From: Pseudomonadota bacterium | GTDB lineage: Bacteria > Pseudomonadota > Gammaproteobacteria > Xanthomonadales > Rhodanobacteraceae | DNA length: 64,000 bases | Assembly (NCBI GenBank): GCA_021794575.1 | Contig: JAJYQO010000079.1 | Span: forward strand, 15,006-79,005 | Direction of reading: 5' to 3' | Shown: positions 52,482 through 62,960 of the stretch, piece after piece | Layout of the letters: every line of letters starts with the position of its first letter | Position numbering within the stretch: position 1 is the first letter of the stretch | The notes under the pieces: model-generated | Told to the model about the DNA's origin: nothing | Seen by the model: the letters and a program-made list of their open reading frames with translations, nothing else | Database searches by the model: none | Translations under genes and position numbers: made by a program

Positions 52482-52844
52482 TCACACACGGATGATGTCG
52501 CGCTTGATCGAATACAGGATGGCGATCACGTCGTTGCGGGTATCCGTATCCAGTCCGTGTTTTTCCATCGTCCCGACGATGTCGTCCATCACCGCCAGAT
52601 ATTCCTGTTCGCTGATATTCATGCCCTTGTGGGCCGCAAGCATGTCCTTGCCCGTGTAGGCCTCAGGCCCACCCGCGCCGGCGCCAAAGAATTCACGCGC
52701 CATGCGCTTGGCATGCTGCATATCCTTGATGTTTTCAAAGCGGGTTTTGACGACGGGATTGACCAGATGCGCGGCGATCACGTCATCGACGAGAGCGGCG
52801 ATGCCGGGTGCGCCGCCCAGACGTTCATAGAGTGTCGTGTTCAT
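52482..52844 (-). CDS. Group I truncated (2/2) hemoglobin
   Basis: LYERLGG, GGP..YTG.DM..AH.GM (proximal His), GGAGG RBS. Confidence 0.9.
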   Translation of the reverse strand: MNTTLYERLGGAPGIAALVDDVIAAHLVNPVVKTRFENIKDMQHAKRMAREFFGAGAGGPEAYTGKDMLAAHKGMNISEQEYLAVMDDIVGTMEKHGLDTDTRNDVIAILYSIKRDIIRV

Positions 52845-53031
52845 GGAGCCCTCCACCCGGGTCGATCAAGTGGTTTGCGTAGATGCCGATCCGCACTGTT
52901 GGCAGAATCCACCGCGCAGAGCCGCGCCGGTTTTCCGCACGCAGCGCCGGTGCCGATGCGCCAATGAGAGAGCGCTGCGTGCGCGCCGACAGCTCTTGCC
53001 GCTGTAAATCGCGCGCTCCTTGGGTCGGCCA

Positions 53032-53106: not shown

Positions 53107-54492
53107 TCACAACACGAACGGTAGCTTGGCGGTGATGCTGAAATCCGGCGCGTCGGGTGTCAGGCCGATGCCGAGATTGCCGACGAAAGTCATGCGTTCG
53201 CTGAGCGCGTAGGTCATGCCGATGCCTAGCGTGGCGGCGTTGCCGTCGCTACCGATGATCCTCTCCCATAGACCAGTGGCGTCGGGGCGGATCCTGGCGC
53301 TGCCATTCAAACGTTGCGCCAGACTCATGCTGAGACTCATGCGTTCGTTGAGCGCAAAGGCCACGCCAATGCCGTAGTTGAAGGCGTTACCGAGGTCGAC
53401 CCTGCCGGGACTGACCGTGTCCGGGCTAGTGTCCAGGTCGGCGAAGTGCCTGGCGAATGTATGGGTTATGCCGACATTGGCGAACAGGATGGCCGGATCG
53501 AGTGTTTTCAGCATCGAGGCACCGAAATTCACGCCCCACACGCCCTGCCCGGTGGGCTGCCGGGTGGGCACGGCGAAACGGATGAAATTGTCGTTGTCGC
53601 GCTCGAGCACGTTCCACGAGATGCCATAGGGCGCTTGTCCGGTGGGGATGCCCACGCTGGCGTTGAGTGCGATTTCCGGCCGCGTCGGAGTCTCGGGAAA
53701 CAGCCGGTAGCTGCTGCTCAGGGTGACATCGCCGACTGCCACGTCACCGCCCACGTTGGCCTCGGCGACAGCCGCGGCCGACCCGCCGGCGCCGCCCTTC
53801 TGGTAGGTGGTCCAGCGCTGCACGAAGGGCACTTCGATGCTGGCCGAGATGTCGCGGGTAATGCCTTTGCGCGCGGCCAGGGTGTAGGTGAAGGTATCGG
53901 AAGCGACACGCTCGACTGCGATCGAGCCCAGGAAGATCGCATCCAGCGCCAGGAAGCCGTTCAACGTAAGTTGTTTGCGGTCGTAACGCGCGTAGTTGAG
54001 TCCCGCCTCCAGCGTCAGCGGCTGGTTGAACAGTACGTGTTGCTGCTGTAGCACGTCTTCGACGCTGCGCGAAGCGGGCTCCTTGCGCGTGCTGCCCTCG
54101 CTGCCGATCAGGGCCTCGGAGCCGCCCATGGGCGCCTGAGCAATCGCGGCGGCGGCCGTGGTGGCGACCGGAGGCGACGATGCCGTTGCTGCAGCGGCGC
54201 CAGCCTGCTGCTGCAGCGCCTGCACGCGCGCCACGCCTTCTTGCGCCTGCACACGCGCGGTCAGCGCCTGCAGGCGGATTTCCAACTCGCGCAGCTTGCG
54301 CACTTCATCGGCATAACGCGATTTGAGTGCTCGCAGTTCGCCGGCCATGGCTTGCACGTCCTGCGCGTTCTCCGCCGCAGCAGCGGTGCCGCCGGCACGC
54401 TGTGCAGCAGTCTGTTGCGCCTGCGCGGACGACTGGACCGCCAGGGCGACCACGACCAGCGCCAGCAGCGCGCCACTGTTGATACGGTGCAT
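53107..54492 (-). CDS. fapF: FapF-like amyloid secretion beta-barrel with N-terminal coiled coil
   Basis: Signal peptide, coiled coil (LKSRYADEVRKLRELEIRL), LNGFLALDAIFLG.I, GDV...SY, PTG..PYG, PTGQGVWG, DPAILF, GLTPDAPDF. Confidence 0.88.
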   Translation of the reverse strand: MHRINSGALLALVVVALAVQSSAQAQQTAAQRAGGTAAAAENAQDVQAMAGELRALKSRYADEVRKLRELEIRLQALTARVQAQEGVARVQALQQQAGAAAATASSPPVATTAAAAIAQAPMGGSEALIGSEGSTRKEPASRSVEDVLQQQHVLFNQPLTLEAGLNYARYDRKQLTLNGFLALDAIFLGSIAVERVASDTFTYTLAARKGITRDISASIEVPFVQRWTTYQKGGAGGSAAAVAEANVGGDVAVGDVTLSSSYRLFPETPTRPEIALNASVGIPTGQAPYGISWNVLERDNDNFIRFAVPTRQPTGQGVWGVNFGASMLKTLDPAILFANVGITHTFARHFADLDTSPDTVSPGRVDLGNAFNYGIGVAFALNERMSLSMSLAQRLNGSARIRPDATGLWERIIGSDGNAATLGIGMTYALSERMTFVGNLGIGLTPDAPDFSITAKLPFVL

Positions 54493-54543
54493 GCCTGCCT
54501 CCTCCCCTGTGTGTGTGATGCACTTGCACCCGCGCGCTGCCGC

Positions 54544-55344
54544 TCAGCGGCCGCCGTGCAGGCCTTGCAGCAAGCCCAGCGACAACGCCACGTTCTGCCG
54601 TAGTTGCAATGCCGCGCCCGTGCTGGGCTGCACCAGCGTGATGCGCAACTGGTTGCCGACGTCATGCCCATCACCGAGCAAGCTGACCGTTTGCAGCACC
54701 GACCCGCCGCCCGAGGCATCGCCGCGGATGATCTGGCGCAGGCTGCCTTGCCCATCCACGCCCAGCGTCACCGCCATGCTGTCCGGTTGCAGCGCTACGC
54801 TGGCGTTGGCATCGCCCACGGCCAGGGCGGTATTGCCGGCGATGCCCGCATCGGAGCTCGCCGGCAAAGTGGTGGTGACGTGCAGTTCGGTGCTGTTGCC
54901 GGCGCTGTTGTGGTCGCCCACTATCTGTATGCCCTGGGCGATGCCGCTGACATTGGCGAGGCCGCTGGCGTCGATGCTGCGCCCGGTGGTGTCCACCAGC
55001 GCGCCGCTGCCGCTGCCCTGCACGATGCTGACTGTGGGTACGAAGGTGACCTGCGGCATGCCCTTGCTGAAATCAAAACTCAACAGCGCACTGCCGCTAA
55101 GCACTCGCCCATCGGGGCTGTGCCAGGTGGATAGCATCTCGACACCGAAGTACAGAATCTGCCCGGTGCCGGTGATGAAGCGTCCGCGCATGCTGTCCAG
55201 CGTGCTGTCGGACACGGGCTGAACATCGCGCGCAGGCTGTGGAATGCGCTCGTCCAGCGTACCCTCCGCCGCACCTACACCGAACGGCGCAAGCGACAAG
55301 GCCAGCAGCAGGACAAGCAGGCGAATTTTGATCGGCTGATTCAT
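54544..55344 (-). CDS. fapE: FapE-like protein
   Basis: Signal peptide, VSDSTLDSMRGRF...ILYFGVEM..TW; position between fapD and fapF. Confidence 0.78.
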   Translation of the reverse strand: MNQPIKIRLLVLLLALSLAPFGVGAAEGTLDERIPQPARDVQPVSDSTLDSMRGRFITGTGQILYFGVEMLSTWHSPDGRVLSGSALLSFDFSKGMPQVTFVPTVSIVQGSGSGALVDTTGRSIDASGLANVSGIAQGIQIVGDHNSAGNSTELHVTTTLPASSDAGIAGNTALAVGDANASVALQPDSMAVTLGVDGQGSLRQIIRGDASGGGSVLQTVSLLGDGHDVGNQLRITLVQPSTGAALQLRQNVALSLGLLQGLHGGR

Positions 55345-55390
55345 GTGATACCTCGCTGTATGCGCCTGTCGTCGCACATTTCGCGCGCGC

Positions 55391-56101
55391 TCAGAACAGG
55401 TCGGCATGGGTGAATCCGAAATCGATCAATTCGGCATCGGTGATCGGTCCCTGGCGGCTGCCCAGCAGGGCGCGCGCGCTGGGTCCGCTGCGCACGTCCA
55501 GCAGCACGGTATTGCGGTCGAAGCCTGATCCGATCACCACGAACACCGCCCTGGATGGCCAGGCCGCCATGAATTCGTCGAACGTGTAGATTTTGTTGCC
55601 CAGCGCCGGGTCAGCGGTGTACACGCGATCGCCCATCACGCGCTTGAGCACCACGAAGTGCTTGTAGCCCTTGCTGTCCAGCAGCACGATGCCGGGCACG
55701 CGCAGACTGCGCAGACGCTGTTCGCTCACCTTGTAGCCGCGGCCGCGCATGCCCAGTCCCTCGACATAGCGCTTGATGTCCAGCATCGAAAAGCCCTGCT
55801 TCTCGACAATGGCCGGATTGGCCTTGGCCAGCATGCCGGCCATCACCGTCCACTCGTCCACGCCGATGCCGTATGCATACTTCAACAGCGTGGCCAGCGC
55901 CGCCGCGCCGCAGCTGAAATCGGTGTTCTGCGGCACGATGTTGCGGAAGCGCGCCTCGCGCAGGCTGGTGACCCTACCGGTATACATCTCGCCTGTAGGC
56001 AGCACATCGCCGAAGCGGATGTCGGCCGCCCGCGCGGAACCGCTGACCGCGAGAACCAGCCAACTCCACAACAGCATCGTGCGTGCGTGGCGAGTATCCA
56101 T
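55391..56101 (-). CDS. fapD: FapD-like C39 peptidase
   Basis: Signal peptide; PQNTDFSCGAAALATLL (Q/C), KHFVVL (H), TADPALG (D). Confidence 0.9.
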   Translation of the reverse strand: MDTRHARTMLLWSWLVLAVSGSARAADIRFGDVLPTGEMYTGRVTSLREARFRNIVPQNTDFSCGAAALATLLKYAYGIGVDEWTVMAGMLAKANPAIVEKQGFSMLDIKRYVEGLGMRGRGYKVSEQRLRSLRVPGIVLLDSKGYKHFVVLKRVMGDRVYTADPALGNKIYTFDEFMAAWPSRAVFVVIGSGFDRNTVLLDVRSGPSARALLGSRQGPITDAELIDFGFTHADLF

Positions 56102-56140
56102 TGAAGGCTGATGCGTGATGGGGTCTCGATACCGGAAAGT

Positions 56141-56164
56141 GCGGGGCGGCGTAGGCCGCCCCGC
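56141..56164 (-). terminator. GC-rich hairpin between fapC and fapD
   Basis: GCGGGGCGGC-GTAG-GCCGCCCCGC, followed on the minus strand by ACTTTCC. Confidence 0.6.
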
Positions 56165-56184
56165 CTGTCACGTCCGTGTCGCGA

Positions 56185-57567
56185 TCACTCGGGAGGCGTG
56201 CCGCCACCGCCGCCCGTGCTGGGCTGCGTCACCGCCAGCGCCAGCGAGTTGGCCTGCTGGTTGCCGGTGCCCGAAGCGATGTTGACGCCGATGTTGCCCT
56301 GCGCGTTCTGCAGCGCCGAGCCGTTCAGCGACGCGGAATTGCTGGACATCACCGCCACGTAGCTGTAGTCGATGACGTAGCCCGACAGTTGCGCGGTCAT
56401 CTCTTCCAGACTGATCTCGCCGTTGTCGTTCATGACCAGCGAGCCGCCATCGTTGCTGGGATCCCCCGGATCGCTGCCCGGCGTGCGGCTGATGTTGTTG
56501 TTGTTGATGTCGGTCAACTGGGTGTTCGTATCCCAGTCGGTATGGCCCAGCCACGGCCCGCTGGTCGGATGCGGCGAGGACGGCGACTCACCCGACGCCT
56601 TGCCCCAGTTGTCGGGGTACATGTTGTAGCGCTGGTCCGAGGTGCCGGTATAGGTGCCATGGATCGAGCCACCCTCGTTACTGCCGGTGATGGTGCCGGA
56701 CAGGCTGATGCCGACGAGATCCACGAAGGTCTGCACGTAGCCCTCGTTGAGCGTGTAGTTGCCGCCCGAATCCTGCTTGCTGTTGACCGAGGCCGTGGCC
56801 ATGCTGTTGGTGCCGGTCGAGGCCACCAGGTTGTTTTGCTGCTGGTTGTTGTTGCCGGCCGCGATATTGACGCCAATGTTGCCCGTCGCGTTCTGCAGTG
56901 CGTTGCCGCCGAGGTTGGCGGTGTTGGTCTGACCGAAGTTGCCGGTAGTGTTGTTGGCATTGAGCTGCTCGACGAACACTTCCGAGTCGGCCATGGTGAA
57001 GGCGAACGAGGCGTCCGCCGCAGCCAGGGCCGCCGCGTTGTGCTGCTGGTTGTTGTCGCCCGCTGCCACGTTCAGACCGATGTTGCCCTGCGCATTCTGG
57101 GCCGCGTCGTCGGCGATCGACGCATCGTTGGCTAGCAGATAGTTTTCACCGCTGTTTTCGACATTGTGCTGGCGGTTGTCGACCACGGCGATGGCGGCGG
57201 AGTCGGTGTTGATGCTGCCGCTGACGGTGGGATCGCCGGTGATGCTGACGTCGGTCAGCAGGCTCAGATCCTTGTTCATGCGCACGCGGCGGATCGAGGT
57301 GTCGCTGTTGACGTCGACGTTCTCGTCGTACACCACATCGCTGTAGATGTAGCTGACCGAGTTCAGCAGGTAATTGCGGATCCAGTCCTGCTGGTCGAGC
57401 GTGTAGTTCAGCGTGGTGTTGTCGGTGTAGGCGTAGTTCAACCATATCGCGCACTGTCCGGCGCCCACGTTGATACCCGTGCAATCCTGTGCGAACGCTG
57501 CCGGAGCAACACCACCCGCGCCGGCCAGAATGGCCAGCGCCAGCAAGTTTCGTTTCAAGTTACGCAT
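56185..57567 (-). CDS. fapC: FapC-like major amyloid subunit, long form (460 aa)
   Basis: Signal peptide; three repeats N.A.(I/L)...A.QNA.GNIG(L/V)N(V/I)A(A/S)G..NQQ.N..A. Confidence 0.88.
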   Translation of the reverse strand: MRNLKRNLLALAILAGAGGVAPAAFAQDCTGINVGAGQCAIWLNYAYTDNTTLNYTLDQQDWIRNYLLNSVSYIYSDVVYDENVDVNSDTSIRRVRMNKDLSLLTDVSITGDPTVSGSINTDSAAIAVVDNRQHNVENSGENYLLANDASIADDAAQNAQGNIGLNVAAGDNNQQHNAAALAAADASFAFTMADSEVFVEQLNANNTTGNFGQTNTANLGGNALQNATGNIGVNIAAGNNNQQQNNLVASTGTNSMATASVNSKQDSGGNYTLNEGYVQTFVDLVGISLSGTITGSNEGGSIHGTYTGTSDQRYNMYPDNWGKASGESPSSPHPTSGPWLGHTDWDTNTQLTDINNNNISRTPGSDPGDPSNDGGSLVMNDNGEISLEEMTAQLSGYVIDYSYVAVMSSNSASLNGSALQNAQGNIGVNIASGTGNQQANSLALAVTQPSTGGGGGTPPE

Positions 57568-57597
57568 TGCTGCATCTCCTGTCGTTGGAATGGACTT

Positions 57598-58224
57598 TCA
57601 ACGGGGTGGCAGATCGATGGCAATGAGCAGGCGGTTGCCCGCTGTGTTGCCCATGCCGGCGATCTGATTGAGTTGCACCACCCCCTCCGCCCCACGCAAC
57701 GCCGTACCCGCAACGGACGCCGAGCGTGGCGAGGAAGATGGATTGACTTGCGAGCGGCCCCCCGTGGCGCCGTTCGTTTGCGTGCCGAGATCCGCCAGTC
57801 TCGCGCTGGTGGACTCCTCGATACCCTGCTGCGCCAGCGCCATCACCACCGCGATGCTGTTCGCTTCGCGATTGCCGATGCCGCTGGCCTGGTTCACGGA
57901 GATCAATCCGCGCGCACCGGAAAGCGCATTGCCGCCGATGCTGGCGATCATCGCGTCGGGTACGCTGGCCGTGAGGGCCTGGATGCGCTGCCGCTGCTCA
58001 ATCTGGACCTGCGCCTGCGCGCCGACGGCGATGGCCTGCGCATTCGATTGCAGGTTGAAATCGCCGGCGGCCAGATTGACCGCGATGACGCCGTTGGCAC
58101 CCGCCAGCGCGTTGCCGTCGATACTGCTGCTGGTGAGGTAGCCCAGCATCTCGGCGTAGGTGACTTGCGCACGTGCCGAGCACGAGCCCAGCAGCAGGAT
58201 GCACAAAGCGAGAAGGCGGGCCAT
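57598..58224 (-). CDS. fapB: FapB-like minor amyloid subunit (nucleator)
   Basis: Signal peptide; three repeats S(I/V).G.AL.GA.G.(I/V).(V/L)N..(A/S)G..N...N. Confidence 0.85.
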   Translation of the reverse strand: MARLLALCILLLGSCSARAQVTYAEMLGYLTSSSIDGNALAGANGVIAVNLAAGDFNLQSNAQAIAVGAQAQVQIEQRQRIQALTASVPDAMIASIGGNALSGARGLISVNQASGIGNREANSIAVVMALAQQGIEESTSARLADLGTQTNGATGGRSQVNPSSSPRSASVAGTALRGAEGVVQLNQIAGMGNTAGNRLLIAIDLPPR

Positions 58225-58724
58225 CAGCCGCCGCCCTTGATCAGGCCCGCGCCCTGCAAGGCGCCGGTAACCTGATTGCCGATGCCGCGAGTAGCACCGC
58301 CCATCGCACCGAGCACGCCGCCGGGTCCGCCGGTCGAAATGGCCGGCGCGCCGCCAACGCCATGCAGACTGCCGTCAAGCAATCCGGCACCTTTCAGCGC
58401 GCCACCGACCGCGTCCCTGGCGAGCATTCCGGCGGGTGCGCCGCTACTGAGCGTGGAAAACGCGGCATCATCGAGTTCGAGATCGCCCAGCATGCCCTGC
58501 ATTTCAGGCCGCACGCTGGGATCGATGATTGTGGCAAGACCAGGCGGCTGTTTGCGAGTGGCGCTACGGTCCGGGACGGCACGTACCAGCACGAACTCCC
58601 CGGGACGGGTGTGGACGCCGCGCCGCACGCCGGCGGCTTCCGCCGGCACGGCCAACAGGCCCAGCACCAGCAGTGCCGCCAACAGCAATACCGAACTGAT
58701 GAATACACGCGGAAACTTGAGCAC
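58224..58724 (-). CDS. fapA: FapA-like accessory protein
   Basis: AAGGAG RBS with GTG at 58724; signal peptide; GEFVLVR.VP, ELDDAAFSTLSSG, Gly-rich C-terminus; first gene of the operon. Confidence 0.72.
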   Translation of the reverse strand: MLKFPRVFISSVLLLAALLVLGLLAVPAEAAGVRRGVHTRPGEFVLVRAVPDRSATRKQPPGLATIIDPSVRPEMQGMLGDLELDDAAFSTLSSGAPAGMLARDAVGGALKGAGLLDGSLHGVGGAPAISTGGPGGVLGAMGGATRGIGNQVTGALQGAGLIKGGG

Positions 58725-58749: not shown

Positions 58750-58765
58750 AGCACAACCTGTGCCA
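58750..58765 (-). promoter_or_regulatory. sigma54 (-24/-12) promoter of the fap operon
   Basis: Minus strand TGGCACAGGTTGTGCT (GG-N10-GC), ending 25 nt before the fapA start; near-IHF site ATTCAATGCGTTG at 58784-58796. Confidence 0.72.
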
Positions 58766-59225
58766 ACTCATTCATACCCATGGATTCAATGCGTTGCGAG
58801 GCTTCTGGCGCACTCGACATCCCACACGCTGTCGCGTCTGCGATACAGCCGCGCGGGAGTCATACGGAACATTCGTTGTCGGCGCTGGCTTTGCGCGCGA
58901 AAGCGCCTGTTGCAGCGACGACACAACCGTCTTGCCAAAGCCTCACGGGCTCACATGGATCGCGTTCGCGCACGCGTTCCACGGCATCGCGAGGCGCGCA
59001 CCGGCCGATTGCCGGATGGCAACGGACGATGCGTTGGCGCGAGGCGCGGACAACGAATCGGGCGCAGGTGCGCTATTGCCCGGAATCCTGCCGGCGGTCG
59101 CAAGCGCACGGCGCGACCCGTGTCAGCGCTGGTATCCCGAACAGTCGGCTACGGTCCGGTATACGACGGCCGCTAACATGAACAAATCCGCCGTTCTGAT
59201 CACCACAGCGAACTATGCTGTCGTC

Positions 59226-62960
<3,735 letters not shown>

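Follow-up and report, generated by a model that had tools for sequence, protein, structure and literature searches.

Positions 53107 to 58724 of the 64,000-nucleotide stretch of DNA analysed here (the window), which belongs to a Metallibacterium genome (Rhodanobacteraceae), carry six co-oriented minus-strand genes whose sequences support their reading as a complete fapABCDEF operon in a Xanthomonadales genome, and it is very probable that this operon is functional and works as it does in Pseudomonas. The original prediction had described six co-oriented genes for secreted or outer-membrane proteins in the order of the Pseudomonas fap genes, and this description was confirmed by the list of open reading frames (ORFs) together with re-read starts. 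All lying on the minus strand, the genes are fapA (58224-58724, 166 aa, a secreted Gly/Ala-rich chaperone-like protein), fapB (57598-58224, 208 aa, the minor or nucleator-type amyloid subunit with three repeats), fapC (56185-57567, 460 aa, the major amyloid subunit), fapD (55391-56101, 236 aa, a periplasmic C39 cysteine peptidase), fapE (54544-55344, 266 aa, a fibre-associated minor component) and fapF (53107-54492, 461 aa, the outer-membrane secretion channel). For fapA we chose a GTG start with an AAGGAG ribosome-binding site on its 5' side, the alternative being a longer ATG-started ORF that would cross the sigma-54 promoter described below. The ATG of fapB overlaps the fapA stop by 1 nt, and the start of fapE is an internal Met of a 287-aa ORF. 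The intergenic gaps from fapA to fapF are -1, 30, 83, 46 and 51 nt, all six frames are open, and each of the products begins with a Sec-type signal peptide as judged by eye.

The six proteins were compared with the NCBIfam Fap equivalog models (NF058617, NF058557, NF058558, NF058616, NF058559 and NF058560), a hidden Markov model search with Fap profiles having been proposed as a check on the prediction. The results showed that each protein, FapB and FapC included, found its own Fap model as its best or only match. FapA matched chaperone_FapA with E 2.1e-5 (24.9 bits against a cut-off of 110) as its sole NCBIfam match, FapB matched the FapB model with E 3.5e-26 over model positions 5-189 of 190 (92 bits against 190), and FapC matched the FapC model with E 8.2e-49 (167 bits against 195). 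The values for FapD, FapE and FapF were 2.4e-74 with C39_FapD (249 bits against 330), 1.9e-22 with FapE (80 bits against 250) and 2.4e-110 with FapF (369 bits against 700), respectively. Judged by these scores, the similarity of the six proteins to Fap lies far beyond chance. The Pfam scan found no family for FapA, FapB, FapC or FapE and recognised among the six only the C39 peptidase and a MetA-type barrel; PF27129 is a precomputed family on homologues.

The three repeats that had been predicted in each of the two subunits were found in both sequences, and they fit the published motifs (PMC12392863). In FapB the repeats were read from the sequence at about residues 31-67, 92-128 and 167-203, the third having the form G-psi-psi-Q-psi-N-Q..aGgN, here GVVQLNQIAGMGN, and at 208 aa the protein agrees in size with the three-repeat, shorter paralogue that FapB is expected to be (about 196 +/- 14 aa). 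FapC is laid out as a signal peptide, an N-terminal region, repeat R1 (146-185), L1, repeat R2 (215-252), a 154-residue L2, repeat R3 (407-446) and a Gly-rich tail, and its repeats (NAQGNIGLNVAAGDNNQQHN, NATGNIGVNIAAGNNNQQQN and NAQGNIGVNIASGTGNQQAN for R1, R2 and R3, respectively) follow the pattern GNIG(L/V)N(V/I)A(A/S)G..NQQ.N. The FapC fibril chains solved by cryo-electron microscopy in the PDB, 9nqd and 9u4u, align to FapC with E 3e-18. In addition, AlphaFold2 (AF2), run with 98 homologues, predicted a three-layer beta-solenoid core over residues 121-295 and 390-447 at a predicted local distance difference test score (pLDDT) of 80-89, and its confidence was low for the N-terminal 92 residues and for residues 300-385 of L2.

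FapD, for which a C39 peptidase had been correctly anticipated, matches Pfam Peptidase_C39 with E 4.8e-19. In an alignment with the sequences of the PCAT1 peptidase domain (4ry2/4s0f), its single Cys64 and its His148 fall on the Cys and His of that domain, and its DP at residues 164-165, which includes Asp164, falls on the ADP of the PCAT1 chain. FapE carries the sequence MRGR at residues 52-55, about 25 residues past the signal peptide and before the conserved mature part, and this MRGR is invariant in 13 orthologues. The three PCAT1 positions aligned with FapD are those of the C39 catalytic triad. Over residues 41-55 FapE has Gly at position -2 and hydrophobic residues at -4, -7, -12 and -15, a spacing that is the pattern of the double-glycine leaders cut by C39 peptidases. 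A published indication that FapE lacks its N-terminus in vivo (PMC6173800) fits cleavage at MRGR, and the sequence of this segment makes it a likely candidate for the site at which FapD cuts.

The last of the six products had been described as a coiled coil followed by a barrel, and FapF indeed combines a barrel with a plug helix and, in its N-terminal part, a long helix. It aligns over residues 138-459 with the crystal structure 5O65 (E 4.7e-80), in an alignment that extends from the plug helix to the end of the barrel and has the PTG motif conserved, and the AF2 model built with 13 orthologues shows a long helix at residues 36-97, a disordered linker, the plug helix at 144-152 and then the barrel strands. 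A clear heptad register runs through residues 46-87. A FapF is expected to join a coiled coil in its N-terminal part to a plug helix and a barrel of 12 strands and to bear the PTG motif, and the window protein fits this description.

When set beside the fapABCDEF operons of Pseudomonas sp. UK4 and P. aeruginosa PAO1, the window operon shares the same six genes in the same order, three repeats each in FapB and FapC with the same Asn/Gln/Gly motif, a FapD C39 peptidase with its Cys and His, and a FapF with coiled coil, plug, barrel and PTG, and dependence on RpoN is plausible for both. The two differ in FapC, which has 460 aa in the window in comparison to 250 aa in UK4, with about 85 extra N-terminal residues that include a genus-level Cys pair, and with an L2 of 154 residues, where UK4 has 35 and P. 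putida F1 as many as 259 (PMC12392863). The FapF plug has LF in the window where the 5O65 chain has FF, and FapA of the window is barely recognisable against Pseudomonas FapA. The Fap systems of other Xanthomonadales (S. maltophilia K279a and Rhodanobacter) have the same six-gene order and a similarly long FapC (about 390-560 aa), which shows 48-52% identity and shares the block before R1, the L1 block (ADASFAFGMADAEVFV), the L2 motif and the AVAQPSTGGGG tail; the window operon differs from them in its genus, in the N-terminal FapC Cys pair, and in having an unlinked activator and a GAF-GGDEF gene as upstream neighbour. Curli (csgBAC/csgDEFG) of Enterobacteria resembles Fap in having dedicated pathways for the secretion and nucleation of an extracellular functional amyloid that is built from repeats and comprises a nucleator besides the major subunit, but it is made of unrelated proteins, with CsgG as the channel where Fap has FapF, has no C39 peptidase and is encoded by two divergent operons.

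Aligning the regions upstream of fapA brought to light a sigma-54 (RpoN) type promoter, TGGCAC-N5-GTGC, at 58750-58765 on the minus strand, about 25 nt upstream of the fapA start, and this is the sole match to TGGCAYN5KTGCW in the 64 kb of the window. Each of the six related loci that cover the region, L010 (~5370), L011 (~5380), L012 (~5364), and L014, L015 and L016 (the last three by eye), has TGGCAY-N5-TTGC upstream of fapA, so that with the window included the promoter is conserved in 7 of the 7 loci examined. A simple scan for promoters and terminators detected neither a sigma-70 promoter nor any meaningful terminator. The gene rpoN is present in this genome, which also encodes four complete enhancer-binding proteins, all at a distance from fap. 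An rpoN mutant of P. fluorescens down-regulates fapABCDEF (PMC8202526), and the regulation of fap was still called uncharacterised in a 2018 review. In most relatives, with loci L010 (L010:2600-3964), L012, L014-L016 and others, fap is adjoined by an activator that bears GAFTGA; the orthologue in this genome is 91% identical and lies unlinked to fap on another contig, C72 (G000:C72:65373-66725; L043:3368-4732), where it is flanked by rimO and an aspartokinase/diaminopimelate decarboxylase gene. The activator has a VpsR domain at its N-terminus, a sigma-54 interaction domain of the AAA+ type in which GAFTGA is intact, and a Fis-type helix-turn-helix.

Directly after the fapC stop, at 56131-56166 on the minus strand, there is a GC-rich hairpin (GCGGGGCGGC/GCCGCCCCGC) with a U-rich tail and a folding z-score of -2.3. 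The simple terminator scan did not call it. Four related loci (L010, L011, L012 and L016) have a hairpin in the equivalent position, though the stems differ in sequence. This suggests a device between fapABC and fapDEF that sets their relative levels, the candidates being an attenuator or a stabiliser of the mRNA.

For the mechanism we adopted the Pseudomonas model (PMC6173800), against which the sequence holds no argument. Transcription would start at the sigma-54 promoter just upstream of fapA, probably activated by the VpsR-type enhancer-binding protein that is unlinked here, and the hairpin after fapC would probably favour fapABC over fapDEF. All six proteins would be exported by Sec, and FapF, by analogy, would form a trimeric outer-membrane channel joined by its periplasmic coiled coil and gated by the plug helix. 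The activity of FapD would be required for secretion and would probably remove the FapE propeptide at the invariant MRGR, while FapA would modulate fibrillation and restrain it when premature. Outside the cell FapB would nucleate and FapC would polymerise into biofilm fibres, each of the three imperfect repeats of FapC providing a Greek-key layer of the cross-beta stack. Biofilms of acidic mines and sulfidic caves are known habitats of Metallibacterium, and a Fap fibre is a plausible component of the matrix there. Two points of Fap biology, the regulation of the operon and the substrate of FapD, can be approached by experiment through the features described here (the conserved promoter, the hairpin, the VpsR-type activator, the L2 motif and the MRGR leader of FapE), none of which is special to this locus.

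Several observations weigh against a functional operon of the Pseudomonas type. None of the six window proteins reaches its NCBIfam equivalog cut-off, in agreement with the divergence from Pseudomonas that had been proposed for them. The similarity of FapA is weak (E 2e-5), and a Foldseek search of the FapC model against the PDB found no entries other than the two FapC fibrils, both of them weak matches (E 0.013 and 0.04; template modelling score 0.16-0.26). On the regulatory side, the -12 element of the window promoter is GTGC instead of TTGC, and the activator is not adjacent to fap in this genome, so that the regulatory link between the two is a putative one. The cut-offs are narrow naming limits and not a definition of the Fap system; the one for FapF is reached in none of 61 related genomes, and the one for FapC is reached by some other gammaproteobacterial FapCs. 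The weak assignment of FapA is backed by its orthologues from six related loci, since each of these has chaperone_FapA as its sole match, with E from 2e-9 to 5e-3.

Two other readings of the locus were weighed against the fapABCDEF operon. The genes could form a secretion cassette of the FapD/FapF type that serves a non-amyloid adhesin or pilus, either Fil-like or of the sort suggested by the name "adhesin" that RefSeq gives to FapC homologues; FapD and FapF also match the putative pilus models FilB (7e-34) and FilC (3.6e-21), and FapF-like paralogues (E 1e-38 to 1e-50) occur in related genera. The Fap models, however, outscore the Fil models by 249 to 117 bits for FapD/FilB and by 369 to 76 bits for FapF/FilC, FapB and FapC each have three repeats of the canonical Fap type and match the chains of FapC fibrils with solved structures, and homologues of FapA and FapE are present as well, all of which makes the non-amyloid cassette extremely unlikely. 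The operon could also be intact but silent or decaying after a rearrangement had split it from its dedicated sigma-54 activator, in line with the position of the activator beside fap in L010, L012, L014-L016 and others, where the window and L011 have the GAF-GGDEF gene and purA in its place and the activator of this genome lies on contig C72. Against such decay, the six frames are open, the catalytic residues and motifs are kept, the sigma-54 promoter is retained and the activator, though unlinked, shares 91% identity with its fap-linked counterpart. Moreover, L011 has the same arrangement at ~80% identity across the operon, from which it follows that the arrangement persisted through speciation under constraint, and we regard a silent or decaying operon as very unlikely, leaving a working fapABCDEF operon as the preferred reading.

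Within this operon, the L2 region of FapC deserves separate mention. Residues 312-350 carry the motif DQ..N.YPD.W ... HP ... GH.D.D...Q, in which Y317, H333, H342, D344, D346 and Q350 are invariant and D319 and W321 nearly so among 98 Xanthomonadales sequences. The motif is also seen across other gammaproteobacterial families, including FapCs above the NCBIfam cut-off, and it is therefore a feature of the family and not a peculiarity of this locus; we found no description of it in the cited Fap literature. A homologue search with the L2 region alone returned near relatives only (70 candidates), and the class-wide FapC searches yielded only a single FapC of possible Pseudomonas type, a short one of ~254 aa that is without L2. 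It is conceivable, though in our estimate improbable, that L2, instead of being a passive spacer, folds into a small module with a metal-binding or catalytic role that the fibre displays along its length; if true, this would give Fap fibres a second function, for instance metal binding in the acidic, metal-rich biofilms of Metallibacterium. Only in Metallibacterium and its nearest relatives does the N-terminal region of FapC have the Cys29/Cys39 pair.

The six-gene order is kept in eight related loci from metagenome-assembled genomes at 45-85% protein identity. Orthologues of FapF (E ~1e-110) were found in 11 of 15 genomes of the genus and as a fragment in one further genome; beyond the genus they occur in six more genera of the same family, and a second family of the order has them as well. 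FapC homologues of 45-65% identity occur in Rhodanobacter, Stenotrophomonas, Luteimonas, Lysobacter/Novilysobacter, Xanthomonas and Pseudoxanthomonas. The weaker class of FapF-like paralogues was seen in genomes of related genera (G018, G022, G025, G026, G028, G029 and G031), with none in this genome, and may represent a Fil-type or another FapD/FapF-coupled system.

The novelty implied for this operon in the original prediction was overrated, as Xanthomonadales Fap operons had already been described in 2013, when fapABCDEF was reported across Beta-, Gamma- and Deltaproteobacteria with Rhodanobacter and Stenotrophomonas named among the Xanthomonadales (Dueholm et al. 2013, PMC3792158). The same study gave the size of FapC as 377 +/- 143 aa, the variation coming from linkers, and the fap operon of S. 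maltophilia K279a was listed in the supplement of a 2018 update (PMC6173800). A GTDB-wide search of 2025 counted 1172 fap clusters, 925 of them with six genes, and the lengths of the FapC genes peaked near 750, 1000 and 1400 (PMC12392863); at 1383 nt the window fapC falls on the last of these peaks. We found no report in the literature linking Metallibacterium with Fap or amyloid. The window operon is an ordinary instance of a known system already reported in the order, not a new system.

The practical value of these results is mainly in the annotation of Fap genes in Metallibacterium and many other Xanthomonadales. It had been expected that annotation pipelines would label most of these genes hypothetical, and the remark was right: the near-identical proteins (90% clusters) are RefSeq Metallibacterium entries in which FapC is named "adhesin", FapB "hypothetical protein" and FapF "transporter"; the majority of the FapC homologues of 45-65% identity in RefSeq are likewise named "adhesin". 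The six genes are mislabelled in Metallibacterium and in many Xanthomonadales because their scores fall below the Pseudomonas-tuned NCBIfam cut-offs.

Upstream of fapA and divergent from it, a gene for a GAF-GGDEF diguanylate cyclase lies at about 59178-60794 on the plus strand and is followed by purA, and a rearrangement breakpoint is located just upstream of the fap promoter. This arrangement was seen in the window and L011 only. The GAF-GGDEF gene was considered as a general conserved regulatory partner of fap and was rejected, as only L011 shares it. Taken with the VpsR-type regulator, the gene content hints at a control of fap by cyclic di-GMP. In L010, a locus from a Metallibacterium metagenome-assembled genome, a 270-aa secreted protein without a family match (L010:4135-4947), absent from the window, is encoded between the activator and fapA. 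At the other end of the window operon, fapF is followed after 250 nt by a truncated-haemoglobin gene (Bac_globin; 52482-52856, minus strand). Between fapE and fapF, L013 and L017 carry an insertion that encodes a globin (75% identical) and a membrane protein of 135 aa with four helices, the coordinates of the inserts being L013:3851-4264, L013:3401-3802 and L017:2656-3063, and the membrane protein stands alone between these two genes at L015:6277-6684 and L006:2962-3369.

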